A stretch of 55,626 nt of DNA. It comes from a virus. Taxonomy: Duplodnaviria; Caudoviricetes. The translations under genes were made by a program, and so were the position numbers. The number at the start of each line of letters is the position of its first letter. Positions within the stretch are counted from its first letter, which is position 1. Positions 5,232-52,883 of this stretch are shown one piece after another. The notes below the pieces were generated by a model. The model made no database searches. It was not told where the DNA came from and worked only from the letters and a program-made list of their open reading frames with translations. The stretch lies in the IMG/VR virus record IMGVR_UViG_3300021495_000006, positions 1 to 55,626 of that record; one strand, written 5' to 3'.

Positions 5232-5570
5232 TCACGGCTCCTCCTTTAAATAGCTTGCCCACGGCTCCTCGCTATAATCATAATGATACCGGCGAGCCAT
5301 GATCTCTAATGCCCTCTGGCGCCACTTATAATTGTGAGCCTTCTCATGGCATTCCACGCAGATGCAGGCCATGTTCTTGGGCGCCCACAACTTGTCCTCT
5401 GGTAAGCCCCTAGAACGCGGGATGATGTGGTGCACAGCCCCGGCCCAGCGCCCGCAGTAAATGCACAGGCCGCGATCCCGCCAGATCACATCCGCCCGCG
5501 CCTGCTTCTTCTCTTTCTCGCTTAAACGACGGGAAACCGCCTTGGCCTTCGCCTGCCCCATCCCTCCCAT
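5232..5570 (-). CDS. HNH endonuclease (possibly packaging-associated)
   Basis: RDRGLCIYCG...VHHIIPRS...NMACICVECHEKAH; GGAGG RBS before ATG 5570. Confidence 0.8.
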   Translation of the reverse strand: MGGMGQAKAKAVSRRLSEKEKKQARADVIWRDRGLCIYCGRWAGAVHHIIPRSRGLPEDKLWAPKNMACICVECHEKAHNYKWRQRALEIMARRYHYDYSEEPWASYLKEEP

Positions 5571-5800
5571 TCGCGCAAAACCTCCTCCGCCAGCCCCACC
5601 CGCTCCGCCCGGCGGCGCTCCCATAACAGCGCTAACTCTCGCTCTATCGCACGCAAGCGCCGCACCTGCTTTGGCTCCTCGCTAATCCATAAACACCCAA
5701 AAGGACGCGAAGCTGCCGTAGCAGCAATGATGCCGCAAAGCTCGCTGTAAAGCTGGCGCTGCTCTTCTGCCAGCGCATTAATGGTGTCAAGCGTGCTCAT
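5522..5800 (-). CDS. Hypothetical coiled-coil protein
   Basis: ATGA overlap with the upstream gene. Confidence 0.6.
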   Translation of the reverse strand: MSTLDTINALAEEQRQLYSELCGIIAATAASRPFGCLWISEEPKQVRRLRAIERELALLWERRRAERVGLAEEVLREWEGWGRRRPRRFPVV

Positions 5801-6015
5801 ATCACGTCCCGCTGGGCCCGGATGAGGCTTTGCAAGATGCTCTTGACATCAGATAGCACACGCTCCCTGGCCCGCAGCTCTCGGAATTTGGCCTCGGCCT
5901 CCGGCAATGCCTCTGCAATGTTCAACATCTCATCGCAGACATCGGCCAAGAGGCGGCAAAGCTCGTCATAGTTGAGCTCTAAGAGCTCTTCACGCGAGGG
6001 CCTATCCAGTTGCAT
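5797..6015 (-). CDS. Hypothetical coiled-coil protein
   Basis: AAGGAG RBS; heptad pattern. Confidence 0.65.
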   Translation of the reverse strand: MQLDRPSREELLELNYDELCRLLADVCDEMLNIAEALPEAEAKFRELRARERVLSDVKSILQSLIRAQRDVI

Positions 6016-6102
6016 CGCTCCGCTCCTTTTAACAATTCACGCAAAAATTTTTTATTTTTAAGCGGCATTCTGACGCGCCCGCCCCACCCCGCCGCTCCAC
6101 CT

Positions 6103-6149
6103 ACAAAGACAAAGCGCCCGGCATACCCCTAGAGGTATGGCCGGGCGCT
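6103..6149 (-). terminator. Intrinsic terminator ending the ncRNA
   Basis: AGCGCCCGG(C)CATACC-loop-GGTATGCCGGGCGCT followed by TTGTCTTTGT. Confidence 0.75.
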
Positions 6150-6415
6150 CATCTCCGGCTAAGTTCCCCACCGTAAGCTGTGATGATTGCTGCAAGGGGA
6201 TTGCGCATTTATGATATTTTAGGATAAATGCCCCAGGCACTCCCCAGCCGCCGGGCCCCACAGCGTCCTGGGGCCACCACTAACCAACGGCGCTTCGATG
6301 GGGGAGCACATCGTCTTGGTCAGCTATGCGCACTCGCTGACCTGCGCCTATAGCCTGACATCCCCGAGGAAACGCCAGGGCGTATTAATGTTACTGCACA
6401 ACACGTTCAGGCCCT
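6103..6415 (-). ncRNA. Unidentified structured non-coding RNA (~310 nt)
   Basis: Bracketed by promoter and terminator, no credible ORF; multiple stems and two pseudoknots. Confidence 0.6.
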
Positions 6416-13195: not shown

Positions 13196-13273
13196 CGCGG
13201 GCGGACAGGATTTGAACCTGCGAACAGGGCTTTTGGAGAGCCCTGGTTTAGACCTGACTCACTCCACGCCCGC
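13196..13273 (-). tRNA. Atypical tRNA-Trp(CCA)-like gene
   Basis: Acceptor GCGGGCG/CGCCCGC, anticodon loop CTCCAAA, T-loop TTCAAAT; weak D-stem and one extra C before the acceptor 3' strand; no CCA encoded. Confidence 0.65.
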
Positions 13274-24378: not shown

Positions 24379-24449
24379 AGCGGGTAAGGGGATTTGAACC
24401 CCTACCAGCGGGCTGGCAGCCCGATATGCTACCATTACACCATACCCGC
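24379..24449 (-). tRNA. tRNA-Gly(GCC)
   Basis: Acceptor GCGGGTA/TACCCGC, D-loop AATGGTA, anticodon loop CTGCCAG, T-arm AGGGG-TTCAAAT-CCCCT, discriminator U; no CCA encoded. Confidence 0.85.
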
Positions 24450-36985: not shown

Positions 36986-37549
36986 TCACTCCTTAATCGC
37001 CTCCACATAAAGCGATTGCTCTTGGTGGTAGTCCTGCGTTTCGGCCTGCATCACTGGTGAATGGCTTTCACCCGGTCGCATGGGCACAATCCGCTTGAAC
37101 CCAGCCATCTCTAGCGCCTGCTTCAAGCCATCCCAAGTATAGGCATGTTGGTGACCTGTATACTCTTCACGCCCCGAAAGCGCCCCGAACAATATGCAGG
37201 CCAGCTTATTGTCCTCGTTCAATTGCTGGTAGATGGGGGGCTGGCAATGGGCAAAGTCGCCCATCTCACGGCGCACCCATTTTTCCAGCAACAGCCCAAA
37301 GTCGGGAACAGCAAGCCGCATTACCGCCCCGCGCTTCATCACCCGATGGCATTCCCGTAAGAAACGCAAGGCCTCAATGATGTTCAAATGCTCCAAGAAA
37401 TGAGAGGCATAGATAAGGTCCACACTGTTGTCGGGATAGGGCAATCCCCAGCGCACATCCCGCAGGATGATGCCGGGCCCCGGCTCTTTATCTATGTTGT
37501 GCCACCCTGGGAAGGTGTAGGGCCCACAGCCAATGTTAAGCTTTATCAT
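36986..37549 (-). CDS. Class I SAM-dependent methyltransferase
   Basis: KLNIGCG, IYASHFLEH, RVMKRGA. Confidence 0.85.
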   Translation of the reverse strand: MIKLNIGCGPYTFPGWHNIDKEPGPGIILRDVRWGLPYPDNSVDLIYASHFLEHLNIIEALRFLRECHRVMKRGAVMRLAVPDFGLLLEKWVRREMGDFAHCQPPIYQQLNEDNKLACILFGALSGREEYTGHQHAYTWDGLKQALEMAGFKRIVPMRPGESHSPVMQAETQDYHQEQSLYVEAIKE

Positions 37550-40500
37550 AATCTTCCCACTCTCTTAACCACTCCTCGGCCACACCCTCCCAACTGAAGT
37601 TGGGAGCATAAGCTTTGCCCTTGGCCGCCCACTTCTTGCGGAAAGCCGCATTGGCCAGCAGGCTTACAGCAAAGCCGATAAACATCTGCTGATACCGCCC
37701 GCTGGCCACATAGCCCGGCACCAGGATACCCCTATCCCCCACCGTCTCCGGCAAAGCCCCGCAGGTTGACGTAAGAATCGCCAAGCCCGCCGCCATTGCC
37801 TCCATTGCGGTGATACAGTTGTGGATGACCACACCACCGGCCACAAAGTTGTGTGTGCCCTCGACTTCCATGTTGTAAACGTCTTCATACCCATAAAAGG
37901 ACACAGAAGCCACGCGGTGATTGGCTTGTTGGATTTTCCTACGGGCCAGGCGCGCACATTCCCGCGAACAATATTTGGCCGTTTCCAATCTGTACAGTTG
38001 TACTTCAAACTCTTTGCCACAATATTGGCAATGCAATTTAACTCTTTTGCGGCGAGTCCGCCCCCTACGAAAGACAAACTCCCGCCGCTCCTCCTCGGTC
38101 ATGGAATTCCACAGCGCATGGCCCGCTATCGAGGCACGGCGGCGTTTCTCTTCAGGTGTCAGGCTAGCCCACCATTGTTCAAACCTCGCCTTTCGTTGCT
38201 TCACGCTGATTTTGCTTGGCGGGCGTTGATTGGCAAACGTTTTCTTGGCATGGGCCGAGGGGCTAAGTGCTTGTAGGTTCCCAACCTCATTATTGAAAGC
38301 ATTGCCATCAATGTGGTCTATGTGATAACCCTTAGGTATTGTCCCGTGCGCCCACTCGTACACTAAACGATGCTCATGCTTCCAAGGGCCCTCACCCGTT
38401 CCTACCTCTACGGATATACGTTTTTTAAGACTAACAACTCGGTCGCCAACAGCCAATTGGCTAATAGGCACCCATCCCCGCTCATAAGTCAAAACAAGGT
38501 GATCGGGTGTAGCCTTGAGGCAAGTGCCATCATCCCATTCAACCTTCCAAACTTCGGCTCGGCTACGGGTTTTCTTGACCCATTTGACCGTGCTCAATAC
38601 AAAGGTGCCTGTCTGTTCGTCATAAGACCACACGGGGAATTCGCTGCGCCCCACCAACTCCTTAATAGGCACGCCAAGAGGATATTTGCTGTAGTCTCGC
38701 GGCATGTCAATGAGAGTATCACCTGTGCAACATGATACCTCCAGGAAGGCAGTCGGATAGAACCAGCACCCTGCCGATAGGAATTCGAGAGCTAGTTCGT
38801 CCTGATTCACCCGCCCATGCCAGACGACATTGGGCGTTGCCTCAATCTGTTTCTCCACTTTCTGCTTAAACTCACGCAGTTGGGGCACTTTTTCGATGTT
38901 TTGCCAGCCATAGTAAAGGTGCAGTTCGGCGTCTGGCACAGCCCTTAAGATGACCGGCCACATTGCCAAAAGGTAATCCAACCCCCGGTCGGGGCTTGAG
39001 GCATAGACCACTTTATGCGGATTGCGCTTTACATCCCGGTCAAAACGGGAGAGGTCAATGCCGTTGCGCGTGGGCTTGAGATTGTTCAAGAAACCATAAC
39101 ACATCTGTAAATAATCCGAGTGCCACTGGGAAACGCCCATGATCCGGTCGAAGAAGTGCCCGCGCTCTGGCGTCATGTTGCCGCCCAGGTGCAAATCATG
39201 CACCCATAGCCACTTGACCTTGCCTCCCGCTTGGGCATCGGCCAGCAGCAATCCAGGAAGCCGCCAGCCTACCAGAAGGTCGGGCTGCATATCCGGCTTA
39301 TACCAGGTGTACGGCCAATAGCCCACCCCTTCGTATTCGCCCGCATATTTACCGCAGTCGTTGAAGACATCCACGTGCCAGCCCGCCTTAGCCAACAGTC
39401 GGGCCATGTGGATAACCGCCGTCTCGCTACCTCCAATGCCGCCCTTATGTAGCGAAGGCGGCCCCCATTCCTCCAAACTCTTCCCGCAATAGAAGACGGC
39501 CCACGGGCTATCGGTTGACCGTTGGCGGAAGGCAGCTTTTGTTACCCTTTTGCGAACTTCTGGCACGTCCATTAACTCTGGCGGGATAGGCGTTTGGAGC
39601 ACCGCTGCATCCGGCGCGCCTTCCCAAAATTTCAGCAGCCCCGCCGCTTTGGTGCGTAACTCCAAGATGTAATCGTAAATCTCCAACTTCTTCTTAAGGT
39701 GCTCCGAGTTGGGCGACACCTTCAAGGCGTCTATCACAATCTGTCTGGCCGTCTCCAAATCGCCAATGTGATAGTAGGCGATGTTGGCGAATAGTGCGGG
39801 ATTATACGTGTAATCCAGGGGATTGGTGAAGATAGCCGCGTCGGGCACTTTGGCCATGCGTCCCAGCTTGTCCCACCAAACGGCCTTCTCATATCGCCCC
39901 ATCCTGGTATAGGCTTCGCTGATCCCGAAGTAAGGATCGGCCCAGTCGGGAAAAAGGACGATGGCCTCTAGGTTTTTTTCAATGCATCTTCGGTAGTCCC
40001 CCAAGAGGCAGTAGCAGTCCGCCAGGAAATGAAGGGCTTGCCATCTCTCCTCCAGCGCGGATTCCAAGCGCAGGTAACGCTCATACCACAAAGCCGCGTT
40101 CTCCCAATCGCGGAGCGCATAATACTGATGCGCAATATAACACAGTGTACGCTTATCGTTAGGATTCTCTTCATAATCCATCTCCAGAAGCTTGAGATTG
40201 CGCTCCGGGTATCCGCGTCCAGTGGGGCTACGATGTAGCACCACAATGTCGGCACTACGGGCGAATTTGGTCGGCCCCAAGGCCTTTAACCCCTCATGCA
40301 CCCGCCGAATCCACGTCCACCCTATGCTCCGTTTAACGGCCCTCTCCCTGGTGAGGATGGTGATACAATTGCCGTTGTCGTCGAAACCATAGAAATAGGC
40401 CAGAAGCAAGCAGCCATAGCCTTGCTTGTCCAGCTTTTCAATAAGCGGTCGCAGCTCTTCGGCATTGTCCAATACGTCGTCAGCGTCCAGCCAGAAAGCC

Positions 40501-40781
40501 CAATCGGTGGTCAGTTTTTTGTAGACTTCATTGCGTGCTTGAGCGAAGCTGGCAATGCATTCGCCATAGTCCTCGAATTGGAATTTAGGCAGCCATGTCA
40601 GGTCAACGGCTTCGCCGCCGAATTCCTCCACTATTTGGCGTGTCTCGCCTTCCCAGCCCTCTTTGCTGGTGATGCCGACAACAATCTGGTCAAACTTGAC
40701 TGGCTTAACGCTCTCCAAACAAGCTCGCAAACTCTCGGTCTCGTTGCGGCAAATAAGATGTAGCCCGATTGTAACAGACAT
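37536..40781 (-). CDS. GT2-TPR-GT4 multidomain glycosyltransferase containing an intein
   Basis: FAQARN and WLDADD (GT-A), TPR helices, GGSETA/SSPDRGL (GT-B), intein in the EVS|CITAME motif. Confidence 0.9.
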   Translation of the reverse strand: MSVTIGLHLICRNETESLRACLESVKPVKFDQIVVGITSKEGWEGETRQIVEEFGGEAVDLTWLPKFQFEDYGECIASFAQARNEVYKKLTTDWAFWLDADDVLDNAEELRPLIEKLDKQGYGCLLLAYFYGFDDNGNCITILTRERAVKRSIGWTWIRRVHEGLKALGPTKFARSADIVVLHRSPTGRGYPERNLKLLEMDYEENPNDKRTLCYIAHQYYALRDWENAALWYERYLRLESALEERWQALHFLADCYCLLGDYRRCIEKNLEAIVLFPDWADPYFGISEAYTRMGRYEKAVWWDKLGRMAKVPDAAIFTNPLDYTYNPALFANIAYYHIGDLETARQIVIDALKVSPNSEHLKKKLEIYDYILELRTKAAGLLKFWEGAPDAAVLQTPIPPELMDVPEVRKRVTKAAFRQRSTDSPWAVFYCGKSLEEWGPPSLHKGGIGGSETAVIHMARLLAKAGWHVDVFNDCGKYAGEYEGVGYWPYTWYKPDMQPDLLVGWRLPGLLLADAQAGGKVKWLWVHDLHLGGNMTPERGHFFDRIMGVSQWHSDYLQMCYGFLNNLKPTRNGIDLSRFDRDVKRNPHKVVYASSPDRGLDYLLAMWPVILRAVPDAELHLYYGWQNIEKVPQLREFKQKVEKQIEATPNVVWHGRVNQDELALEFLSAGCWFYPTAFLEVSCCTGDTLIDMPRDYSKYPLGVPIKELVGRSEFPVWSYDEQTGTFVLSTVKWVKKTRSRAEVWKVEWDDGTCLKATPDHLVLTYERGWVPISQLAVGDRVVSLKKRISVEVGTGEGPWKHEHRLVYEWAHGTIPKGYHIDHIDGNAFNNEVGNLQALSPSAHAKKTFANQRPPSKISVKQRKARFEQWWASLTPEEKRRRASIAGHALWNSMTEEERREFVFRRGRTRRKRVKLHCQYCGKEFEVQLYRLETAKYCSRECARLARRKIQQANHRVASVSFYGYEDVYNMEVEGTHNFVAGGVVIHNCITAMEAMAAGLAILTSTCGALPETVGDRGILVPGYVASGRYQQMFIGFAVSLLANAAFRKKWAAKGKAYAPNFSWEGVAEEWLREWEDYDKA
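37818..38732 (-). mobile_element. Intein (305 aa) with HNH endonuclease
   Basis: N-terminal CCTGDT, ATPDH block B, C-terminal HNFVAGGVVIHN|C; internal HEHRLVY..IDHIDGN..NN..NL and a CxxC...CSREC finger. Confidence 0.92.
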
Positions 40782-41509: not shown

Positions 41510-44500
41510 TTAGGCAGCCTGCTTCTGGGTGGTGACGTGCTCCAGACGCACGATCGCGTTCTGATCCAAGATGACACAGGCGTGAGCCAATCTGTTACTT
41601 TTGTGACCATCCCTGCGGGATGGCGGGTGGTCATTTCTGCCACCTCTGCACGTTCATTTCCGTGCAGTTCGGACTATGCCATCACTCTTACGAGTGCGCC
41701 GTCTCTAGTCTCTACACACGCCCACACTCCCCCACAGGAGTGCTGCTTGGCTCGGCGTCGCCATCTCAGGTTTCCGCCGAATTTACGGCGTTTTACAAGG
41801 CCAACTCCGTCAGCCTTCCATCCATGCACCCAATACTGTGCCAACGGATCAGTCTTCGTCGGCGTCGCGGGCACGAAGTACGTCTGAGCCGCCATAGCAT
41901 CCAACTCGGTAATTCCGTAGGCATTCTTGCCGATGAAGAGGGTGCCGTATACGTCCGCTCCCGAAAGGCCCAAGCTGGCGTAAATCTTGGCGTTGGAGGT
42001 CACGACAAATTTGACCCCCAAGTAGTCTCCGATTTCGCCAGTGAACAAGGGGTTGTTGGGCCCACGCGGAGCAGCCCGCTGGAACGCCTCGTTGATGTCA
42101 TCATCGGCAAACATATCCGCCTCGGTGTCGGGATGGATGCAATCTGTTACTTGCATGACCCCATCATTACCCTACCATTACGATGGGGCGGGCAGGCATG
42201 TCTGCCTACCTCTGCGCCTTCCACATTAGGTTATACGCGCAGTTCGGACTGTCGCACCATCTCCGCAATGGAGAGCCCCTCGCTCAGTCTCTACACCCCG
42301 GCCCATGCGGGCCGTTGGCTCGCGGTAACCCACCTCTGGGTGTCCCCCGAATTCAGAGAGGTTTTTCATGCAACCTCACGGCTGCATGGCACCATGCCGA
42401 TGCAAATATACTTCCCATCCACTACCGGCTGGATGTTGTTCCTCTTCAAGGTCTTGACGGCTCGACGGATTTCGGCTGCCGTCAGGAGCATGCCGCTGCC
42501 CACCTGGCCACGCGAACCGGCTGTGGAGGCATACAAGACGTTAGAGCCCGATTGAAGGACCTCACGGTCAATAATATCCAGGGTGAGGCCCATCTGTTCT
42601 GATCTGTTACTTGATGACCTTGGAACATTAATGTTCCAAGGCGGGCGGTCATTTCTGCCGCCTCTGCATGTCGCCATGCAGTCCGGACTCTCCCTTCATT
42701 GCGCCCTATAGGGCGCAATGCCCCCCGTCGAGTCTCTACACCTTCCCGATACGAATACCGGGCTTGGCTCGCGGTTGTCTCAAAGAGACTTTCCCCGAAT
42801 TTGAGGGGTTTACCCTGGGCGAACAGTTCACCCATGAGCTCCGCAGTCTCGGCCAGCACGTTGTCAATCGCCTGCGTCTCCACAAGGTCGCTACCACGGA
42901 TGTAATCCAATCTGTTACTTTGGTGACCACACTATTAGAGTGTGGCGGGTGGTCATTTCTGCCACCTCTGCATGTTTCCATGCAGTTCAGGCCGTCGCTT
43001 CATCCTCTCGGATGCCGTCTCGCTCGGTCGTTGCGGCTGCTCCTACGGCGTTGAGCTTCCGCATCTTATGATACAGCTCCTCACGCCGTAGTAGCTCCCT
43101 CTGTTTTACCTCCTCGGATTGATTACGCCTGTCCACATAGTTGAGAATAAAATCCAGGAGGATTTCGGCTTGGGGCCTTTTCACTCGTAAGTAGGGCAAC
43201 ACCAAACACAACGCCCGGAATACACACCTACGCCCACTTACGACCCAGCGGTAAATTGGCCTTCGGCCATCAGAGGGAGCGCGCTCTATGCGGACACTAC
43301 CGCCCAAGTGTTTGGCCAACAAGTCTATTGGCTCTTTGTCCACCATGCCCACGCTTATGTAAGTAGTGTATCGAGTATCCTTAACGTGGAACTTGGGGTT
43401 GGGCTTCATCTTACAGATTCTAAGCGTGCCTTCGCCGTCTAGAATCCCCGCCAAGTATCCGTATAGAGCCGCTTGCCTCGGGTCATCATGCAGGATTGCC
43501 ATTGCAATCTCCTGTTTAGACTTTCCCGGTATTCAGAGACGGTTTTACTACGGCAATTCCCATTACCGTACTGGCTGATCGTCACAGTGACAGCGGTCAT
43601 GCTCAAGTTGCTGCCTGAAGGGGGCGTGCCCTCAGTCAGGGCAGTCGTCGCAGCAGCAAGAGACTTGAACTTCCTGAACTCAATGCTCTTGCCCGCGCCT
43701 TTTGGGATATTGCGCTTCTGCGCAAACTGCCCGTGAACCAGATTCATGTTTGTTACTCTACCCCCCCCGCTAGTGTGGGGGATAGGGCCTGGTCATTTCT
43801 GCCAGGCTCTGCATGTCGCCATGCAGATCAGACTATTTCATGCTCTCCGCCTTTAATCGTATCGGCTGAGAGCCTCGCCGTATAGTCGTTGAGAGCGCGA
43901 TCTTGGGTTGCTTGGCAGGCAATTGCCGGAATCGCTCCAAAAAGCTCATTTCCTTGGCGATTTCTTCCTCGGTTCGTGCCTTGTGGGGCAAGCGGCGACC
44001 ATGCCAATCACGCTCCCAGTCTCTATCATTGAACCGGCTGGCCTGCTTCCACTCCGCAAATTCGAGGATTAATTCAGCTCGCGGCTTCTTGCAGGTCAAG
44101 TATGGCAAAACAATCCTCAGCAATCGCACAACAGAGTTAATGCGACACACTGTGATTGCCACGGAATCATGCCAATGTTCCCGGCCCTTTTTCCCTTGGT
44201 GGCGGTTGAGCGTGTAGTAATAATGCACTCCCCACCGGGAATAAATCTCACTTAGGCGGCGTAACAGGCTAAACTCCGTGCTTGTCACAGAGATTTTAAT
44301 GCCAAGCGATTGTGTGCCATTGCCCTTATTCCTGACCTCATATAAGCCGCATGAGCCTTCGCCATCCAAAATGCCTGCCACCCATCCGACCTCGATTGGG
44401 TCGGGATCGCGTCTGCTAGTTGTCTCCACCATGGGTCTTTTCCTCCTTTGGGGCCAACGGATACACGAGACTTTCTAGCATAAGGCGAGTTTGCAATTAG

Positions 44501-44899
44501 CGGTCACCCGCTAATGGCCCTATATAGCTAAGGCAAGGCACGCTCAAGCAGCTTTTTGTCGTAATCCTGCTGTTACCCCATCCTGAAGGATGTGGCTTGG
44601 TCATTTCTGCCAAGCTCTGCAACTTCACTTCGTTGCAGTACGGACTGTGGCTTACCCCTATGCCGTCGCACAGGGCCCCCCGCTCAGTCTCTACCGCTGC
44701 CCGCCACATTCTGTGTAACGATAGTGCCCTTTCCGGTAATCATCGTGACACAAAATGTGCTGCTTGCCTCGGCGTGACCATCTCAGGCTTCCGCCGAATT
44801 CAGGGGGGTTTGACGCCTGCATTACTGCAAGCGGACGCATCACGTATACGTCTTCGCTTCTAGCGTGAGGGTAGACGCCAAAGTCTCGATATTAGCCAT
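41510..44899 (-). CDS. Major capsid protein (N4-gp56-like), 7 exons: 44899-44848, 44565-44531, 43744-43565, 42907-42830, 42599-42400, 42139-41812, 41587-41510; 316 aa spliced
   Basis: Joined exons total 951 nt in one frame: ...KTYYDKKLLERALPNLVHGQF...IEFRKF...LTEG...QYGDYI...LMGEQMGLTLD...YICIIHPD...GEIG...DPLAQ...GWKAAHACVIL...*; follows the scaffold gene. Confidence 0.92.
41588..41811 (-). mobile_element. Group I intron 6 of capsid gene (224 nt)
   Basis: P1 AAGGCU/GGCCUU, P3 CGCCGU/ACGGCG, P7 GACUA/UAGUC, terminal G. Confidence 0.9.
42140..42399 (-). mobile_element. Group I intron 5 of capsid gene (260 nt)
   Basis: P1 GCAU/GUGC, P10 AUG/CAU, P7 GACUG/CAGUC, terminal G. Confidence 0.9.
42600..42829 (-). 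mobile_element. Group I intron 4 of capsid gene (230 nt, apparent terminal A)
   Basis: P1 UGGGU/GCCCA, 6-bp P10 CUGUUC/GAACAG, P7 GACUC/GAGUC. Confidence 0.85.
42908..43564 (-). mobile_element. Group I intron 3 of capsid gene (657 nt, with endonuclease)
   Basis: P1 UACGGU/GCCGUA, P3 CCGUCUC/GAGACGG, P7 GACCG/CGGCC, terminal G. Confidence 0.9.
42987..43502 (-). CDS. Intron-encoded single-motif LAGLIDADG homing endonuclease
   Basis: YLAGILDGEGT motif, PYLRVKRPQA. Confidence 0.9.
   Translation of the reverse strand: MAILHDDPRQAALYGYLAGILDGEGTLRICKMKPNPKFHVKDTRYTTYISVGMVDKEPIDLLAKHLGGSVRIERAPSDGRRPIYRWVVSGRRCVFRALCLVLPYLRVKRPQAEILLDFILNYVDRRNQSEEVKQRELLRREELYHKMRKLNAVGAAATTERDGIREDEATA
43745..44530 (-). 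mobile_element. Group I intron 2 of capsid gene (786 nt, with endonuclease)
   Basis: P1 GCCU/GGGC, P4 UGCUAG/CUAGCA, P7 GACUA/UAGUC, terminal G. Confidence 0.9.
43833..44432 (-). CDS. Intron-encoded single-motif LAGLIDADG homing endonuclease
   Basis: WVAGILDGEGS motif, PYLTCKK; own AGGAGG RBS. Confidence 0.9.
   Translation of the reverse strand: MVETTSRRDPDPIEVGWVAGILDGEGSCGLYEVRNKGNGTQSLGIKISVTSTEFSLLRRLSEIYSRWGVHYYYTLNRHQGKKGREHWHDSVAITVCRINSVVRLLRIVLPYLTCKKPRAELILEFAEWKQASRFNDRDWERDWHGRRLPHKARTEEEIAKEMSFLERFRQLPAKQPKIALSTTIRRGSQPIRLKAESMK
44566..44847 (-). mobile_element. Group I intron 1 of capsid gene (282 nt, no ORF)
   Basis: P1 GACGU/GCGUC with U.G, P10 GUGAU/AUUAC, P7 GACUG/CAGUC, terminal G. 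Confidence 0.9.
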
Positions 44900-45815: not shown

Positions 45816-48800
45816 TTACCATCGCCTATACCAGCGCAACTTAGGCGCTCTCCGCACCCGCCTGCGCTTGGGCTCTGTAAGCGCCAGGTGCGCCGCCAGG
45901 CTTTGGGCTAATGCCGCAAGCCATTCCGGTGATTTGTCTTGTAGCCAGGCCGCCAAATCGGGATACCGCCGCAAGAACCATCCTCTCTGCGCTTCGGGCA
46001 AAAGAAGATAGCTCTGTATCAGCTCCAAAAGCCCCTTATCCTCCATGCCCTCGGCGAATTTCCACCAATCGGTGGCCATATCCTCCAATGTCTCACGCTT
46101 CGTCTTGCGGCGTCTGCGGCCCCGCCTCCGCTTTGGCTTCGGTGTATACGGCTGCCATGTCGGGTAGAGCCACTTGACCATCACCGGATGACTGGCTTTC
46201 CATTCGTCCATGAAGCGCCAGGCCGGTTCCAATTGCTCACGCAGGGCCTTGCGTTTGTTGAACTCCCACCATTTCAGCTTAGAATAGGCGTCCATCAACT
46301 CGGAGTAATTGGGGACGATGGAACGCACGGCCTCCCACATTTCGGCCCGTTCACGCAAGGCCTGGTCGTATTCCGCCGCCAGCTCCGGTGATACGCGCTG
46401 GAACCGTCCACTTGGGGCTTGCAACCCCGCTTCCGTCAAGGCCGCGCCCGGCCAGGGCTTGGGTTCATAAGCGCCCCATTCCTTCAGGAATTCCGCCTCC
46501 GCAGCCTTGACTGCCGCGCCCCTGGCCTCTGCCATCTCAGGCAATAAGCCAGGGTCAAGCCCGGCATAGTTGAGCCAGTATATCAGCTCTTCATCGGTGA
46601 TGGCGTCGTAATCCCGCGTCTTCTTGTTGACAAAGAGCCTCTGGAAGCGGTCGCCCAGCGCCTTCTTCAAGCGCCTCTTATCCAGCGCGGGCAAGGCCAT
46701 GTAGAACTCCCACAGGTCGCTGATGGCCCTATCCCTTGGGCTCATGCCCCGGCGCCGGACTTCTTTAAGCCCCGGCAGGGTGATGTCCCGATAAATCTCC
46801 GCAAGCTGGTCGTATGTCCAGCCCTTCTCTGGATACATCGCCAGCACACGGGTGATGAATTCGGTGGCGGGCCGAGCCGGATAATTTGAATAATATTTAT
46901 CAAATAACTCGGCCCGCTCCGCCCCGCTCAAGCCCTCGGCCTCCGCAAACATGGCCTTCTGAGCAGGGTTGATGACCGTCTCTTTGTAAACTCGCCACAG
47001 GGCCTCTTTGGGGTCATCGTTGCGGCGCAGATAACGCTCCAAGCGCGCACGGGTGAGCCAGGATAGTTGCGGTATCTTGCCCTTAATGCCCATTTCCCGC
47101 AACGCGCTCTTATCGAGATAGGGCAGCCACTTCTTGGGATTGTTCAGGAACTCATCGCGCGCCCGGTAGAAGGCATCCCAATCAATCTTGCCCTCTTTGT
47201 CCTTAAATTGCTCTGGCTGAATGGCATAGTAGGCTTCAGCAACCGGCCGCAATGCTTTGTCTTCATAGTAGGTTTCGATCTCGCTGGGCGTCCAGCCCCA
47301 GAACGAGGGCGTGCGCACTATGTCTTTGTATTCATCATCAAGTGCATCTAACTCTTCCTGCCGCTTGCGGTATATCGTCTGCCGAGCACGCCAATCGCCC
47401 AATGGGACTTTATCCAAGTCTTTGGCATAGCGGTCATAAATGGCCCTGCGCTTGTCGTAGTATTCGCGCTCCCTGAATTGCACCACCCGTTCGGGGCCAG
47501 GCGTCCAGAGCAAGCCCCGGCTTGTATACCACGGATTGGCCTCATACCACTTCCGCCTGGCCTCTCGAATCTCCGGCCCCTTTTCCCCGGCTCGCTCTCG
47601 CTCGTAAATCTCCGCCAAGCCCTCTGCACGCCGGATGCGCATTTCGCCCTTCGGTAGCAACCTGGGCCGAATGCCTAGAAAATAGGATACCGCCGTTGGG
47701 AGTTGTTTTAAGATAGCCGCCCGATTAACCGCCTCCTCCCATATTGGCCCCTGGTGATACATTGGACTGGCCGGGTTCAAGACGGCATCGCGCTCCTCCG
47801 GTGTGATCTCCTCATTGGCCGCCATGTCCAATACCATGCTCTCCGGCCAGTATTCTGCTTCATAGCCCGCCGCTTCCGGCAGGCCCAAGCCCACACGGAA
47901 GGGCTTTTCGATGTTCAATCCGCCGGGCGGGATCCAACCGAAGCGCTCCGGCCACTTCTCCCGCATGTAAGCGGTCATGCCCTTCAACACGCCCGTCTGT
48001 GGGAGAATATACCAAATATTCTCCCGCTTGCCCCGCGCCATATCCAAGGCCACCTGTAGCGGCCAATGCGGAGCCATGCCGAAGATGTGTTGCAAGTCAG
48101 CCAGCCTGTCCAAAGCAGTCTTGGCCTCATTGTTATCGTCCCAATCCACTTTGGCCAAGTAATTGAACGGCCAGACTCCCACGTGGGGAAAGATGAAGGG
48201 CATGATGTCAATAGGGACGCGCTTCTCTGCCCATTCCGGTAAAGCTTCGGCCACACCCTCAGGCGCAGGCACAAAGAGGGCCGTCGGCCCGTAGCGCCTG
48301 GGGAAGCCCATCTCCTCATTGATGCGCTCGATAGCCTTGCGCATACGGTAATAGCTTGTGACCGTCCAGGGCTTGGTAATCATACGCATGGCCGCCTGAT
48401 AGCCGGTGCGTGTAGGCCAGAAATGGAACGGGAAGAATAAAGCGATTAGACGGTCAAGCTCATAGCGCTTGTCATAATCGTAAAGAGCCCGGTTGACGAC
48501 CTCATAGGCCCATTGCAATTTAGCCATGTTCGCGTCTTCCCTGGCAGGCACAAGCACCTGCTTCACCCTATCCAGGAAGACACGCTTTAGCTCTTCGACC
48601 ACCGGCTCTGCTTTATCGCGGGTGATGCCCTTCTTCAGGCGTTCGATAAGCTTTAGCTCTGCCTCACTTGCCGACCGCACGCCCTTGGCATAGCTGGGCA
48701 TCCCACTGGTCATGGCAGCCGCGCGGGATAGCGCTCGTGTGGCAATGCGCTCATAATCCTTCGCCGTGCTGCCTTTGAACCGCTTGGCCTGCTTCCGAGC

Positions 48801-51800
48801 CCATTCTGCAAAGTCGCCCAGCCACTTGACGTATTCATCCGGCGGCTCTGCCTTGCTGATGTCGGTGACCGGAACACTGAACGCCCGGCCCTTCTCTGGG
48901 TCGTATACCCATGTGAGCACAGCGCCCGAACGAACGCGCGCTGTCCTAGCTGCAATGCCATCCCCTTTCGGCGTATGCACCCAATCAGCCGGCTGCACGC
49001 CGCCAGGTAGAATCTTGGGCGGGGCCTTGGGCTTGGCTACTTTCGGTGCCTTCGGCTTCGGCGCTTTCTCTATTGCCTTGGCCGCCTCCGCCTCTGCCTT
49101 GAGCACTTCATCAAATTCCTCAAGCGGCGCTTCAGCAATCGGCTTCAGTTCATCCCACCAACCCTGGGCCTTTGCCAACTTCTCGATGTCATCTAATTCC
49201 GCTTGGACAGCAGCCCGCCTAATGGGGGAGGCGTTCACCCGTGTGAGACCGGCCAATAGCTTTTTCCGGCTCTTATAGCGGTTAAGATCGCCCTCCCACC
49301 TCTTCGGCTTAGTGACCTTCGGCGGCGCAGCGGCTTCCTCTACAAGTTTCGGCTCCCCCACAATCTCCCAGCCGGACGGCCTGGCGAATTCACGCAGTTC
49401 ATCCCACCAGCCCTCGGCCCTAGCCCTTTCAGCAATTTCGTCCAGCCTTGCACGGATACGCCCCGTCTCGCTCTCAGGATAGCCCCGGTCAATGTAGTCT
49501 CGTAACTGGCGTATCAGCCGCTTATACTCCGCCACCTCATCGGCGTGGACGACCTCCATCGCCTTCTTCATGCCCAGCTTAGCACGCAAGGCATTGGCCT
49601 CGGCGCGTAAGTCCTTCTCTAGCTTGGGGGCTATGGCACGGCCCAATCGCTTCTGCTCATCCAGGAAATTCTCGATGGTCTCCAGCCGCTTGCGAGCCTC
49701 GTTCTTGGTCATCTTAGCCACACGTTCGGCCATAGTGGTGGGCTTCTCCGCTACCTTGGCGACTTCTGGAACCGCCTCAACTGCGGCCTCCTCCACCCTC
49801 GCCGCTTCAACGGCCTCGGCCACTTCTTCGGCCTTGGGGATAATCTTCTCACCTTCCTCCACCGCTTCCTTCGGCAATGAGGCCAACTCCGCCTTCAGCG
49901 CCTTGATGCGGCCCTTGAGCTCTTTGACCTTCTTGTGGGCGTCTACATAATCCCGAACGGCCTGGAGCAAATCCTCTTGGGAACGGAAGCCCAGCTCGGT
50001 GGCCATATCATCGGTAACCGCATACTCCCACGAGACTAACTTGCCCGTGGCCCTGTCACGCACACGCTTGAAGGTGCCCGTGTGATAGTCCCACAGCTTG
50101 AAGACCGTCTTCTGATCCAAGGGCTGGGCCTTGAGGTAATCCTGCAACGATTCCAGATATTGCTCCGTCTGGTAAAGTTCGGCCTGGAGATCCGCCGCCT
50201 TCTCCGCCGCCGTCTCGACCTCTTTGATGGCCTTCGGCGCTTTTTCGACCACGCCCTCAAGGGCAGGATGACCGCTCAATAGCTGATAGGTGGGCGTATT
50301 GGCTTCGGCCATCTTTGCCCATAGGTAATCCTGCCACTTCTTGGCCAATTCCGGCTGCTCCTCGATGAACCGCCGTAGCTCCGTGAGTTTCGTTGGGAAG
50401 GGAATGTCGGGGCTGACGTGCTTGGCCCAAGCGCGCCGGGCATATTCGCCCTTCTTCCACATATCGAGCTCATAGGCGGCCTTCGCCATCTCGTCGGCGC
50501 TCATCCACAAGCCTTCAGCCGTCGCCCCGCGTTCGGTCATCTCGCGCACCATCGTGGCGTAGGTGCGCTTGACAATCTCCTCTGGCTTGCCTTTACGGAA
50601 TTCCTCCGCCGCCTCGATGCCCGGAAGCAACGCCGCCTCTTTGGGCTTCACCGTGACGGGCAGGTTCTCCAGTTGCTCAGCCCGAGCCAGTCGCTTCTCA
50701 ATCTCCGCCGCGACTTCATCCACGCCTTTGGCCAACTTCTCGGCATCATCCCCGGCTTCATCCACGACTTCCTGAATGGCCTTGACGAAGCCAGGCGAAA
50801 CCTCCTCGGCATCGTCAATATAGCGAGCCACCAAGGTGAGGCCACTTAAGGCCTTCTCGGTGTTCTCGATAAGCTCCTCGCCATTGAGGGATTGTCTCCA
50901 CGCTGCAATCAGGTTGGCCTTAGTGTTGGGATCAATATAAGGCCACAGGTCATCAAAGGCCGAGAGGTCAATCAGCCCACCCGGGCGCCAATAGAGATCG
51001 TCGAATTTCTGGCAGGCCCGATAGGATGCCCCATACCGCGCCCAGGCCTCGCCCAGCAGCGGTATGTTGCCGCTGTAAAGGCGTCGGCCCAGGTCGGCCA
51101 ATTCCCGGATGATGGGCAATCCCCGCTTAGGCCCTCTATACTCCCGCGTCAAGCCCAAGCCGCGCTGAAACTGCGCCGGGCTGAAGCCAAACGAGCGAAT
51201 CATGTAATCGTCAATATGATTATGCGAAGCGAAGGACAGCAACCCGTCATACGTCAGAAAACTCACATTGCCCGCCGCATTCCTGATAAGGGCCCTGGGA
51301 GAGATGCCCATGTAGAAGTCGGCCATAAAGCTCTTAAAGCCCTGGGCATACTTCTCCGCCGTGCTGGGCGGCTTCACACCATAAAGCTCGTTAGTCACCT
51401 TGATGGACTTGTCATAAAGCTCGCTCAGAAAGTCCATCAGCTTGAACTCACGGTCGGGCTTCAGCGTGCGGAAGCTGTCAATGTCCATCATCTTGAGCGC
51501 CTTCCGCACCTCATTGGCCGCCGGGGATTTGACGAACGAGCCGAATTCGGGTGGCAAGCTCTCCGGGGCCTCCACAAAGCTCTTGAGCAAAATCTTGGCT
51601 TCATCCGGTGTCTTGGCACGCCGCAGCACCAATCCTGTGAAACTGTTAAGGTGCCTATCCAACGCCCTGGCCTTGCTGTGTGCAGTGATGCGGAAGGGGT
51701 TAAGCTGCTCGATCTTGCCCCCGATCTGCTGCCATGCCCGCTTGAACCAGGGCATTTGCTCCACCGTCTCTTGGACGATAGGCTCTGCCTTGCGAACGAA

Positions 51801-52883
51801 CTGATTGCGCACCCGATTCAACAGGCGCACATCGCGGAGCTTGCCCAGCCAACTGCCTGCTATGTCGAGCGGGTCGAGCACAATCTGGCCAATGGCTTCG
51901 ACAATTGGGTCTTCATACTTCCGCACTACTTCGTCAATGGACGCGCCCTGTTTAATTTCATCGAGTGCCTTCTCCAACCGTTCGGGATGGGCGCCCCAGG
52001 TGTAGTAGGTGCGCGCCAGCTCCGCCGTCTCCTTGGGTGGCAGATTAAGCTCCCGCAGCTTTTCATCGGCCCGACGCCAGGCTTCAACTTGTTCGGGCTT
52101 TATCTCCACGCCGCCCAATAGGGCTGCCGCCTCCAGATGTGTCATCGGGTGCTCAGGCACCACGCGCTCATAGGCGGCTTTTGGACGGCGCTTCATAGCC
52201 TCCAATGCATAGGTGCCAATGCCGCGCTCTAACCAATAGGCCGGTTGCTGCAATGCTTTGACAGCTCCCTTAACGGCCTCCTCCGCCGTGCGGGGGATGA
52301 TACCAGCTATCGGTTGGCGCTTCCAGGCCCGCCAAGCCTCCAATGCTCCAGCCAAAGGCGCAGTCACAACCTCGGGTGCAGGCTTCCCGATGGCCTCCAC
52401 TGTGGTAGGCGGCAAGAAAGGCCGCTCCGCGAGTTGCTGCTTAATGGTCTCCACCGCCTCGCGTGTGCCTTCCGGCTTCTCCACCGTCGGCGGTGGAACC
52501 TCAATCCTAGGCGGTGCAGCTTTCACGGCCACGGGAGGAGGAGGCGTCACCACTTCCGGTTTAGGCCATTCCTTAAGCGGCATGGGGAAATATGGACGAC
52601 GCCTTTTGCGCTCGAATTCCTCTTCGGCCCTCTCCACGCCACGCTCTACCTTGGGGGCTTCCGCCGCCCTTCGCCAGGCCTCCATCCCTGCAATCTGCCG
52701 CTGCCATGCTTCGGCGGGCACTTCTTCCGGTGGTGTCCAACCCTTGGCACGCAGGGCCGAACCCTCAACGCCCGGCTTCCACACCACCTTATAACCCGCC
52801 CGCCGCCATTGCTCCTCAACAGGCAGGTTGAACCAATCCTCTCTATTCCCTTGTCCTGTCCCGATGTTAATGGTGACCGCCAA
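45816..52883 (-). CDS. Giant (2355 aa) helical protein, probable internal virion/ejection protein
   Basis: Size, helical composition, FFPFHFWP-type motif, location in the head module. Confidence 0.6.
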   Translation of the reverse strand: MAVTINIGTGQGNREDWFNLPVEEQWRRAGYKVVWKPGVEGSALRAKGWTPPEEVPAEAWQRQIAGMEAWRRAAEAPKVERGVERAEEEFERKRRRPYFPMPLKEWPKPEVVTPPPPVAVKAAPPRIEVPPPTVEKPEGTREAVETIKQQLAERPFLPPTTVEAIGKPAPEVVTAPLAGALEAWRAWKRQPIAGIIPRTAEEAVKGAVKALQQPAYWLERGIGTYALEAMKRRPKAAYERVVPEHPMTHLEAAALLGGVEIKPEQVEAWRRADEKLRELNLPPKETAELARTYYTWGAHPERLEKALDEIKQGASIDEVVRKYEDPIVEAIGQIVLDPLDIAGSWLGKLRDVRLLNRVRNQFVRKAEPIVQETVEQMPWFKRAWQQIGGKIEQLNPFRITAHSKARALDRHLNSFTGLVLRRAKTPDEAKILLKSFVEAPESLPPEFGSFVKSPAANEVRKALKMMDIDSFRTLKPDREFKLMDFLSELYDKSIKVTNELYGVKPPSTAEKYAQGFKSFMADFYMGISPRALIRNAAGNVSFLTYDGLLSFASHNHIDDYMIRSFGFSPAQFQRGLGLTREYRGPKRGLPIIRELADLGRRLYSGNIPLLGEAWARYGASYRACQKFDDLYWRPGGLIDLSAFDDLWPYIDPNTKANLIAAWRQSLNGEELIENTEKALSGLTLVARYIDDAEEVSPGFVKAIQEVVDEAGDDAEKLAKGVDEVAAEIEKRLARAEQLENLPVTVKPKEAALLPGIEAAEEFRKGKPEEIVKRTYATMVREMTERGATAEGLWMSADEMAKAAYELDMWKKGEYARRAWAKHVSPDIPFPTKLTELRRFIEEQPELAKKWQDYLWAKMAEANTPTYQLLSGHPALEGVVEKAPKAIKEVETAAEKAADLQAELYQTEQYLESLQDYLKAQPLDQKTVFKLWDYHTGTFKRVRDRATGKLVSWEYAVTDDMATELGFRSQEDLLQAVRDYVDAHKKVKELKGRIKALKAELASLPKEAVEEGEKIIPKAEEVAEAVEAARVEEAAVEAVPEVAKVAEKPTTMAERVAKMTKNEARKRLETIENFLDEQKRLGRAIAPKLEKDLRAEANALRAKLGMKKAMEVVHADEVAEYKRLIRQLRDYIDRGYPESETGRIRARLDEIAERARAEGWWDELREFARPSGWEIVGEPKLVEEAAAPPKVTKPKRWEGDLNRYKSRKKLLAGLTRVNASPIRRAAVQAELDDIEKLAKAQGWWDELKPIAEAPLEEFDEVLKAEAEAAKAIEKAPKPKAPKVAKPKAPPKILPGGVQPADWVHTPKGDGIAARTARVRSGAVLTWVYDPEKGRAFSVPVTDISKAEPPDEYVKWLGDFAEWARKQAKRFKGSTAKDYERIATRALSRAAAMTSGMPSYAKGVRSASEAELKLIERLKKGITRDKAEPVVEELKRVFLDRVKQVLVPAREDANMAKLQWAYEVVNRALYDYDKRYELDRLIALFFPFHFWPTRTGYQAAMRMITKPWTVTSYYRMRKAIERINEEMGFPRRYGPTALFVPAPEGVAEALPEWAEKRVPIDIMPFIFPHVGVWPFNYLAKVDWDDNNEAKTALDRLADLQHIFGMAPHWPLQVALDMARGKRENIWYILPQTGVLKGMTAYMREKWPERFGWIPPGGLNIEKPFRVGLGLPEAAGYEAEYWPESMVLDMAANEEITPEERDAVLNPASPMYHQGPIWEEAVNRAAILKQLPTAVSYFLGIRPRLLPKGEMRIRRAEGLAEIYERERAGEKGPEIREARRKWYEANPWYTSRGLLWTPGPERVVQFREREYYDKRRAIYDRYAKDLDKVPLGDWRARQTIYRKRQEELDALDDEYKDIVRTPSFWGWTPSEIETYYEDKALRPVAEAYYAIQPEQFKDKEGKIDWDAFYRARDEFLNNPKKWLPYLDKSALREMGIKGKIPQLSWLTRARLERYLRRNDDPKEALWRVYKETVINPAQKAMFAEAEGLSGAERAELFDKYYSNYPARPATEFITRVLAMYPEKGWTYDQLAEIYRDITLPGLKEVRRRGMSPRDRAISDLWEFYMALPALDKRRLKKALGDRFQRLFVNKKTRDYDAITDEELIYWLNYAGLDPGLLPEMAEARGAAVKAAEAEFLKEWGAYEPKPWPGAALTEAGLQAPSGRFQRVSPELAAEYDQALRERAEMWEAVRSIVPNYSELMDAYSKLKWWEFNKRKALREQLEPAWRFMDEWKASHPVMVKWLYPTWQPYTPKPKRRRGRRRRKTKRETLEDMATDWWKFAEGMEDKGLLELIQSYLLLPEAQRGWFLRRYPDLAAWLQDKSPEWLAALAQSLAAHLALTEPKRRRVRRAPKLRWYRRW

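Follow-up and report, generated by a model that had tools for sequence, protein, structure and literature searches.

A phage capsid gene intron that probably ends in A, and its relatives in bacterial 23S ribosomal RNA

Introduction

Group I introns are regarded as universally ending in a guanosine (omega-G) that is essential for catalysis, and canonical borders are assumed by some database pipelines. Here we describe a probable departure from this rule in a phage, namely intron 4 of the major capsid protein gene carried by IMG/VR record IMGVR_UViG_3300021495_000006. This record is a linear phage contig with an estimated completeness of about 71% (CheckV), and the whole of its 55,626 bases is referred to below as the window. 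From comparison of the locus with related introns, the best-supported reading is that intron 4 ends naturally in A (omega-A).

Natural omega-A introns have already been published, hence intron 4 would be a further case of a known rarity. A Coxiella intron, L1917, is said to end in A. The title of Raghavan et al. 2007 (J Bacteriol 189:6572), as listed among the references of PMC11270868, credits Coxiella burnetii with two self-splicing 23S ribosomal RNA (rRNA) introns, one of which 'lacks the canonical omegaG'; judging from that title, this bacterial intron lies in the same 23S rRNA region as the omega-A members of the intron 4 family described below, whereas intron 4 itself lies in a phage protein gene. 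According to two reports, the group I intron ND5-717 of hexacoral mitochondria is a natural omega-A intron which ends in A and whose exons are perfectly ligated in vivo, as judged by reverse transcription-polymerase chain reaction and sequencing (PMC6545197, PMC8146996). ND5-717 is mitochondrial, obligatory and vertically inherited, has whole genes inserted in P8 and may be back-spliced or trans-spliced. Intron 4 resembles ND5-717 in its terminal A, but it is a phage intron of 230 nucleotides (nt) without insertions, belongs to a mobile family, and is unrelated in sequence family and host. A non-exhaustive literature search, in which the Greek letter was poorly matched, found no paper on omega-A in a phage gene or on a family-wide pattern of this kind.

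Capsid gene and messenger RNA junction

The exon set of the capsid gene was derived by combining reading frames with P1 pairings (Table 1). The joined exons give 951 nt and an open frame of 316 residues with zero internal stops, and the encoded protein aligns end to end (tblastn) with intron-less homologues in three retrieved loci (44% for L010, 36% for L001 and 35% for L009, the last being the major head protein of Bacillus phage Pascal).

Across intron 4 the reading frames demand GGU/GAA CAG AUG GGC. The resulting AELMG/EQMGLTLD aligns without gaps (tblastn) to ILGRQAGETSD of L010, VLGDQFADTVD of L001 and LMGENAGESID of Pascal. Thirteen runs are listed as holding this stretch, and none is recorded as RNA. 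Contigs of runs X1, X2 and X4, all DNA, were compared, and the metagenomes X2 and X4, with relatives of the phage, supplied three intron-less alleles that skip intron 4, reading GGT GAG CAG in X2, and GGG GAG CAG and GGA GAA CAG in X4. Homologues and alleles together solidly confirm GGU/GAACAG (LMG/EQMG) as the predicted messenger RNA (mRNA) junction, in agreement with the initial annotation of the window, which had proposed that the junction restores LMG-EQMGLTLD and that use of a later G at 42594 would delete EQ.

Two other junctions were considered and rejected. Joining LMG to MGL, with omega-G at 42594, fails since the intron-less homologues align without a gap and E and Q are therefore needed; homologues and alleles keep two residues at this place (E, D, R or Q, then Q or N). 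A 5' splice site at U42834 is contradicted by the intron-less alleles, in which ATGGG(T/G/A) is contiguous with GA(G/A)CAG.

Architecture of intron 4

Intron 4 matches the Rfam group I model RF00028 with 65.4 bits (gathering score 50, E 2.2e-14, model positions 1-253, window 42846-42664). Folding with RNAfold gave z = -5.7 and recovered the hairpins P1, P5, P6, P8, P9, P9.1 and P9.2. Exon 4 ends GAG CUC AUG GGU, the final U being 42830; the intron starts GAACUGUUCGCCCAGG and ends GUAACAGAUCA, the final base being A42600. P7 consists of G42734-C42686, A-U, C-G, U-A and C42730-G42690, together with G42736-C42685 across the bulged A42735, and the P9.1 hairpin reads GGCGG-CAGAAAUGA-CCGCC (42662-42644). 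The end in A42600, the canonical guanosine-binding pair (G42734-C42686 beside the bulged A) and the perfect 6-base-pair (bp) P10 (CUGUUC/GAACAG) adjoining the wobble G42820, all of which the initial annotation had reported, are directly visible in the minus-strand sequence.

Thus intron 4 has the RF00028 core, a U·G wobble in P1, a P7 G-C pair with its bulge and a P10, and what it lacks, with the 5' site at the wobble, is omega-G. We keep the group I assignment because a non-G omega is a known rare exception within the class. Intron 4 is probably a functional group I intron of a large family found in phages and bacteria.

Intron family and P9.0 register

Members of the subfamily to which intron 4 belongs were defined by a P9.1 hairpin GGCAGAAAUGACC, with GUAACA 15-45 nt further on and the 3' splice site another 3-6 nt away. 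A scan of viral contigs for GGCAGAAATGACC...GTAACA gave at least 119 stretches, and intron 4 fits the definition in its motif spacing and in having P9.0 directly before omega. The hairpin GGCAGAAAUGACC is exact in introns 1, 2, 3, 4 and 6 of the capsid gene, and intron 5 has the variant GGCAGACAUGCCU. The other five introns of this gene, as well as those of L180 and L213, share with intron 4 the core, the P9/P9.1 module, the GUAACA tail, the U·G 5' site and a P10 guide beside the wobble G. All of these end in G, whereas intron 4 has A at the aligned position; the tail common to the window introns is GUAACA(N4-5)G, in place of which intron 4 has GUAACAGAUCA.

The joining segment J7/9 has the form G-N-N in this family, and both Ns pair with two bases of the tail to form P9.0. 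Among the matches listed, a scope that also holds for every count of family members and 23S rRNA introns below, 47 of 105 members have a J7/9 whose positions 2-3 are Watson-Crick complementary to a pair of tail bases directly preceding a G (17.8±3.7 expected from shuffles, with 0/1000 shuffles reaching 47). In introns whose borders are fixed by 23S rRNA, P9.0 lies directly before the last intron base in 33 out of 40 (shuffles 6.8±2.3, maximum 15 in 2000). For intron 4, with J7/9 GGA and tail GA-UC-A, this register points to A42600 as the omega position, and taking G42599 as omega would leave an unpaired A at -1. Introns 3, 5 and 6 have J7/9 GAA with UU-G, so that intron 4 is changed on both sides of the P9.0 pair. 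L213 has J7/9 GGA like intron 4 and ends GUAACAGAUCG as compared to GUAACAGAUCA, a difference of one base (GAUCG). The tail of L214 reads AAUCA/GGGG at a putative border.

Related capsid introns

The exact pattern of the intron 4 tail and following exon gave 0 stretches in viral contigs. A looser version gave 66, of which only L180 and L187, which are the same sequence, encode a capsid relative (32-41% amino acid identity). The L180 intron lies at the same codon junction, with a 5' end CUCGGU/AAAAUGUUU-GCCGAG and a 3' end GUAACAUAAUG/GAACAGAUGGGCC, and shows a canonical U·G wobble with omega-G directly before GAACAG. An orthologue of intron 4 is present in L238, from a phage related at 95%. 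It differs from intron 4 at 1 of 230 positions and keeps GAUCA/GAACAG, while the flanking exons differ at 8/78 (exon 4) and 5/200 (exon 5) positions, all of them synonymous. Such synonymous-only divergence argues that the arrangement persists under purifying selection and is not a private assembly error. A comparison of homologous introns at this site, suggested by the initial annotation, gives omega-G in L180 and A in L238.

A second, unrelated capsid intron with the same predicted omega-A arrangement is found in L064 (L064:6569-6770). Its 5' end is ...GUU AAC GGU/GGGAUC-GCCGUU, with P1 formed by AACGGU/GCCGUU, its 3' end is ...GUAACAAUUAUCA/GAC AAC CCU (AUUAUCA/GAC), and its J7/9 is GGA. The junction VNG/DNPTEP is matched without gaps by 9/9 intron-less homologues examined, which read ...G(V/T)N(G/A)/D(N/S/L)PT... 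and are up to 81% identical over the query exon; phage-database homologues of this capsid, at 24-29% identity, were too distant to fix the junction. The L064 capsid gene (L064:4749-7283) has introns of about 207, 1184 and 202 nt, and within the 1184-nt intron a long open reading frame (ORF) runs on the other strand (5389-6324).

When 21 capsid introns of the retrieved loci were mapped by homology, 17 allowed canonical (U,G) borders. Robust exceptions were limited to intron 4, the orthologous intron of L238 and the intron of L064; a fourth, in L088 (45% identity), is an artefact, and no solution was obtained for one intron of L223 and one of L256. With 17 of 21 canonical, the rule normally holds in the family and intron 4, L238 and L064 appear to be real exceptions.

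Introns at site 1931 of 23S rRNA

A scan of species-representative genomes gave at least 120 loci (L271-L390). In these, 74 family introns adjoin U1931/A1932 of 23S rRNA, the last base being G (44), A (23) or C (7), such that 30/74 end in a base other than G; among the 66 with a 5' exon identified in the locus, sliding the borders reaches no G in 17. A clean P1 (CCUAAGGU / GCYUUAG) is present in 40 introns, of which 29 end in G and 11 in A.

These 11 omega-A introns start with U in ten cases and G in one, and their first exon base is A. Since the first intron base and the first exon base differ, sliding reaches no G in any of them. All 11 keep the G-C binding pair (GACUU/AAGUC) and all have P9.0 directly before the terminal A (UC/GA in ten, CU/AG in L301). 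Furthermore, a perfect 4-bp P10 (CGCU/AGCG) abutting the wobble G is present in 11/11 omega-A introns versus 1/29 omega-G introns. Two metagenome contigs, L257 and L250, likewise carry an unambiguous omega-A at 23S.

Five of the seven C-ending introns and six A-ending ones begin with AG like the exon, and a two-base slide would give them omega-G with a G-C pair at the 5' site. By eye, P9.0 precedes the terminal C in six of the seven C-ending cases.

Alternative splice sites

Intron 4 and exon 5 both begin GAAC, which lets the pair of boundaries move by 0-4 bases while the mRNA stays the same. A slide of +1 puts the 5' site after G42829, which is paired with C42821, and the 3' site after G42599, which would then be a normal omega-G. 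The DNA alone leaves two options, an A at omega or a 5' site away from the U·G wobble, and that both predict an identical mRNA weighs against the omega-A reading. The initial annotation had overlooked this slide, and its claims are qualified accordingly. The wobble U42830·G42820 by which P1 was held to fix the 5' site after GGU is present, but a one-base shift leaves the mRNA as it was; use of the next G gives the frameshift that had been predicted with the 5' site fixed at U42830, but not if both sites move by one base; and a natural omega-A intron is favoured insofar as the homologous omega position is A, according to the P9.0 register, L180, L213 and the omega-A relatives, while the shifted boundaries also fit the DNA.

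With the shifted sites the guanosine would attack after a G-C pair, P9.0 (UC/GA) and one unpaired A would precede omega, and the oddity would move to the 5' splice site. We consider this unlikely. The G42829-C42821 pair is indeed part of the predicted P1 hairpin, and tail length does vary in the family, with omega 4, 5 or 6 bases past GUAACA in 19, 25 and 4 members, respectively, and a 12-nt tail in intron 2 of the capsid gene. L059 and L085 show A before an apparent omega-G (...AG/CGG; exon borders putative), and L064 permits an equal shift, the first exon base being G both there and in intron 4. However, cleavage would have to occur after a Watson-Crick G-C pair with the U·G idle one step below, and this in two unrelated introns. 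The GAA repeat is explained more simply by pairing to a shared guide, since the intron start (as the P1 extension) and the exon 5 start (as P10) pair with the same sequence. The intron at this site in L180 separates GGU from GAACAG, A42600 is the omega position given by the validated P9.0 register, U at -1 is available to each of the 17 other capsid introns mapped, and sliding cannot rescue the 11 omega-A rRNA introns.

Another possibility, which we regard as quite improbable, is that cleavage occurs at U42830 and G42599 mostly serves as omega. This would give GGU-AACAG, a -1 frameshift and a truncated capsid mRNA, with the correct product being minor or dependent on a protein cofactor or some other route. 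The G directly follows A42600, and a 5-bp P10 (AACAG/CUGUU) could still form with one unpaired base between P10 and P1, a gap equal to that left by the P10 of intron 6 on a hand reading of the sequence; omega mutants of the Tetrahymena intron are reported to use a nearby G as a cryptic site. Against this, capsid protein is needed in large amounts, and an omega at G42599 would leave P9.0 unformed. A crippling defect is also unlikely given that two phages with only synonymous exon divergence keep the arrangement and that L064 shows it again.

That the A stems from faulty assembly or sequencing at 42600-42601, or that the capsid gene has recently been inactivated, is very improbable and is already largely refuted. 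The contig is metagenome-assembled and incomplete by the CheckV estimate, and the sibling introns 3, 5 and 6 end GAUUG. Nevertheless Logan contigs of run X1, at a depth of about 44, show 0 differences to the window over 41621-42972, A42600 included. X1 is probably the source sample of the window, but GAUCA is also present in L238, an independent contig of a diverged phage. The plus-strand base at 42600, which had been marked for verification when the intron was first noted, is T in both. In addition the joined frame is open, the exon changes are synonymous, and J7/9 has co-changed from GAA to GGA where UU became UC.

Several further points weigh against a natural omega-A. In Tetrahymena, replacing the omega G by A is reported to be strongly detrimental to exon ligation as long as the G-C pair is kept, and in engineered mutants A at omega reportedly worked well only with the binding pair changed to A-U; intron 4 differs from those mutants in keeping the G-C pair, as do the 11 omega-A rRNA introns. 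The P9.0 rule fails in 7/40 rRNA-site introns, and it wrongly predicted omega-A for L223, where homologues of 96-97% identity (...GDK[FY]N/WDVY) place the site at GCCG/UCAACUGG with omega-G. Because of this false prediction, P9.0 was used solely alongside exon evidence. The 11 omega-A rRNA introns are probably one lineage, given that they share P7, P10 and J7/9, and so represent persistence across species rather than 11 independent events. Finally, a Simkania L1931 intron is called 'unspliced' in the title of a paper; rRNA introns need not splice, and hence their persistence is weaker proof than that of the protein-coding case. Having weighed these points, we still regard a natural omega-A intron as the probable reading of intron 4.

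Proposed splicing mechanism

Given the ordinary core and guanosine site, the first step should be normal, with an exogenous G bound by the unchanged P7 G-C pair attacking after U42830 of the P1 U·G wobble. The 2-bp P9.0 directly upstream of A42600 and the perfect, unusually long P10 of 6 bp directly downstream of it would then define the 3' splice site. In the second step the 3'-OH of U42830 would attack between A42600 and G42599 to yield GGU-GAACAG (...LMG-EQMG...). A G-C site would be expected to bind A only weakly, and the neighbouring G42599 might compete, leading to a -1 frameshift. That the second step is slow and could limit the rate of capsid synthesis, as the initial annotation proposed, is speculative.

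We infer from the register and the aligned introns that A42600 rather than G42599 holds the omega role in catalysis, and that P9.0 and P10 may make up for weak binding of the A. A suggestive parallel for the latter is the P10 contrast between omega-A and omega-G introns at site 1931; on the other hand, the P10 of L064 has only about 2 bp, and the single probable lineage of the rRNA cases again counts against it.

Implications

We tentatively propose, as a possibility that we rate somewhat below even, that the identity of the terminal nucleotide is relaxed in this family, that P9.0 and P10 mainly specify the 3' splice site, and that introns ending in A (perhaps also C) splice adequately and so persist and spread. 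If this were true, introns with non-G ends would occupy two or more sites of essential phage capsid genes as well as the 23S rRNA genes of many bacterial species, and omega-G would be a lineage-dependent rather than a universal requirement of group I catalysis. The family would then also provide a natural series for the second step without guanosine in the G site.

A capsid gene needs precise and abundant splicing, and intron 4 would therefore be a stringent natural test of an A-ending intron with an unchanged G site. The second capsid case, the L238 orthologue and the rRNA introns ending in A or C form a tractable family in which P9.0 and P10 may stand in for guanosine recognition during exon ligation. 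For annotators the consequence would be that omega-A introns are mis-bordered or missed; one published pipeline drops candidates without U at the 5' border (PMC11835236). Recurrent non-G ends within one family, in both capsid and rRNA genes, are a more interesting lead than intron 4 taken singly.

Table 1. Features of the capsid gene and of intron 4 in the window. Intron lengths and ends are those of the predicted borders.
Feature	Coordinates	Strand	Details
Major capsid protein gene (N4-gp56-like)	41510..44899	minus	seven exons, six group I introns
Exon 1	44899-44848	minus	
Exon 2	44565-44531	minus	
Exon 3	43744-43565	minus	
Exon 4	42907-42830	minus	
Exon 5	42599-42400	minus	
Exon 6	42139-41812	minus	
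Exon 7	41587-41510	minus	
Intron 1	44566..44847	minus	282 nt; ends GUAACAGCAGG
Intron 2	43745..44530	minus	786 nt; ORF 44432-43833; ends GUAACAAACAUG; Rfam RF00028 27.1 bits, below threshold
Intron 3	42908..43564	minus	657 nt; ORF 43502-42987; ends GUAACAGAUUG, canonical omega-G
Intron 4	42600..42829	minus	230 nt; no ORF; borders given with the U·G wobble taken as the 5' splice site
Intron 5	42140..42399	minus	260 nt; ends GUAACAGAUUG
Intron 6	41588..41811	minus	224 nt; ends GUAACAGAUUG; Rfam RF00028 31.5 bits, below threshold
Intron 4, P1 hairpin	42816..42834	minus	UGGGU (42834-42830) / GCCCA (42820-42816); wobble U42830·G42820; from sequence and minimum-free-energy fold
Intron 4, P1 extension	42829-42827 / 42823-42821	minus	GAA / UUC; minimum-free-energy fold
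Intron 4, internal guide (P10)	42821..42826	minus	CUGUUC; directly 5' of wobble G42820; perfect 6-bp complement of 42599-42594
Intron 4, P7 5' strand	42730..42736	minus	G-A(bulge)-GACUC; contributes G42734 to the guanosine-binding pair; Rfam alignment
Intron 4, P7 3' strand	42685..42690	minus	GAGUCC; contributes C42686 to the guanosine-binding pair; Rfam alignment
Intron 4, J7/9	42682..42684	minus	GGA; G42683-C42601 and A42682-U42602 form P9.0
Intron 4, 3' domain	42618..42681	minus	P9 42681-42664 (GCGA loop), P9.1 42662-42644, P9.2 42641-42618; fold
Intron 4, P9.0 3' strand	42601..42602	minus	U42602 and C42601, directly before omega; pair with A42682 and G42683
Intron 4, omega position	42600	minus	A (T on the plus strand)
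Exon 5 start, P10 target	42594..42599	minus	GAACAG (codons E, Q)

Other features of the locus and its relatives

The ORFs of introns 2 and 3 (44432-43833 and 43502-42987) both contain an ILDGEG-type motif, which by eye we take to resemble LAGLIDADG. Pfam gave zero matches for these two ORFs and for the single capsid exons. Intron content varies among close relatives. L238 has introns 4 and 5 and is without introns 3 and 6, and its capsid gene carries two further introns at other sites (about 215 nt and about 932 nt); contigs of run X4 skip introns 3, 4 and 5, and one contig of run X2 skips intron 4. This suggests that intron gain and loss are ongoing in the phage group formed by the window, L238 and the X2 and X4 relatives. 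N4-gp56-type capsid genes with multiple introns seem common among the viral contigs retrieved.

In the capsid gene of L223, a 42-nt insert with in-frame stops (L223:814-855, minus strand; coordinates derived by hand) lies between ...TKFR and QLCDAEDG..., a site that is contiguous in homologues of 96-97% identity. The insert has a P1-like U·G pairing (AAUUCCGU/GCGGAAUU), a P10-like GAGCUG/CAGCUC and a terminal G but lacks a ribozyme core, and 55 nt downstream there is a full intron. The insert could be either a degenerate mini-intron spliced in trans or an assembly quirk.

Elsewhere in the window, a 1081-residue glycosyltransferase with TPR repeats (37536-40781, minus strand) is split by an intein carrying an HNH endonuclease (Pfam Intein_splicing 3.5e-19, HNH_3 2.5e-12), with Glycos_transf_1/2 on either side. 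Rfam identifies two transfer RNA genes on the minus strand, at 24379-24449 (64.4 bits) and 13197-13272 (33.9 bits). Upstream of the capsid module, an ORF of 2355 residues (45816-52883, minus strand) has a repetitive central part rich in lysine and glutamate.

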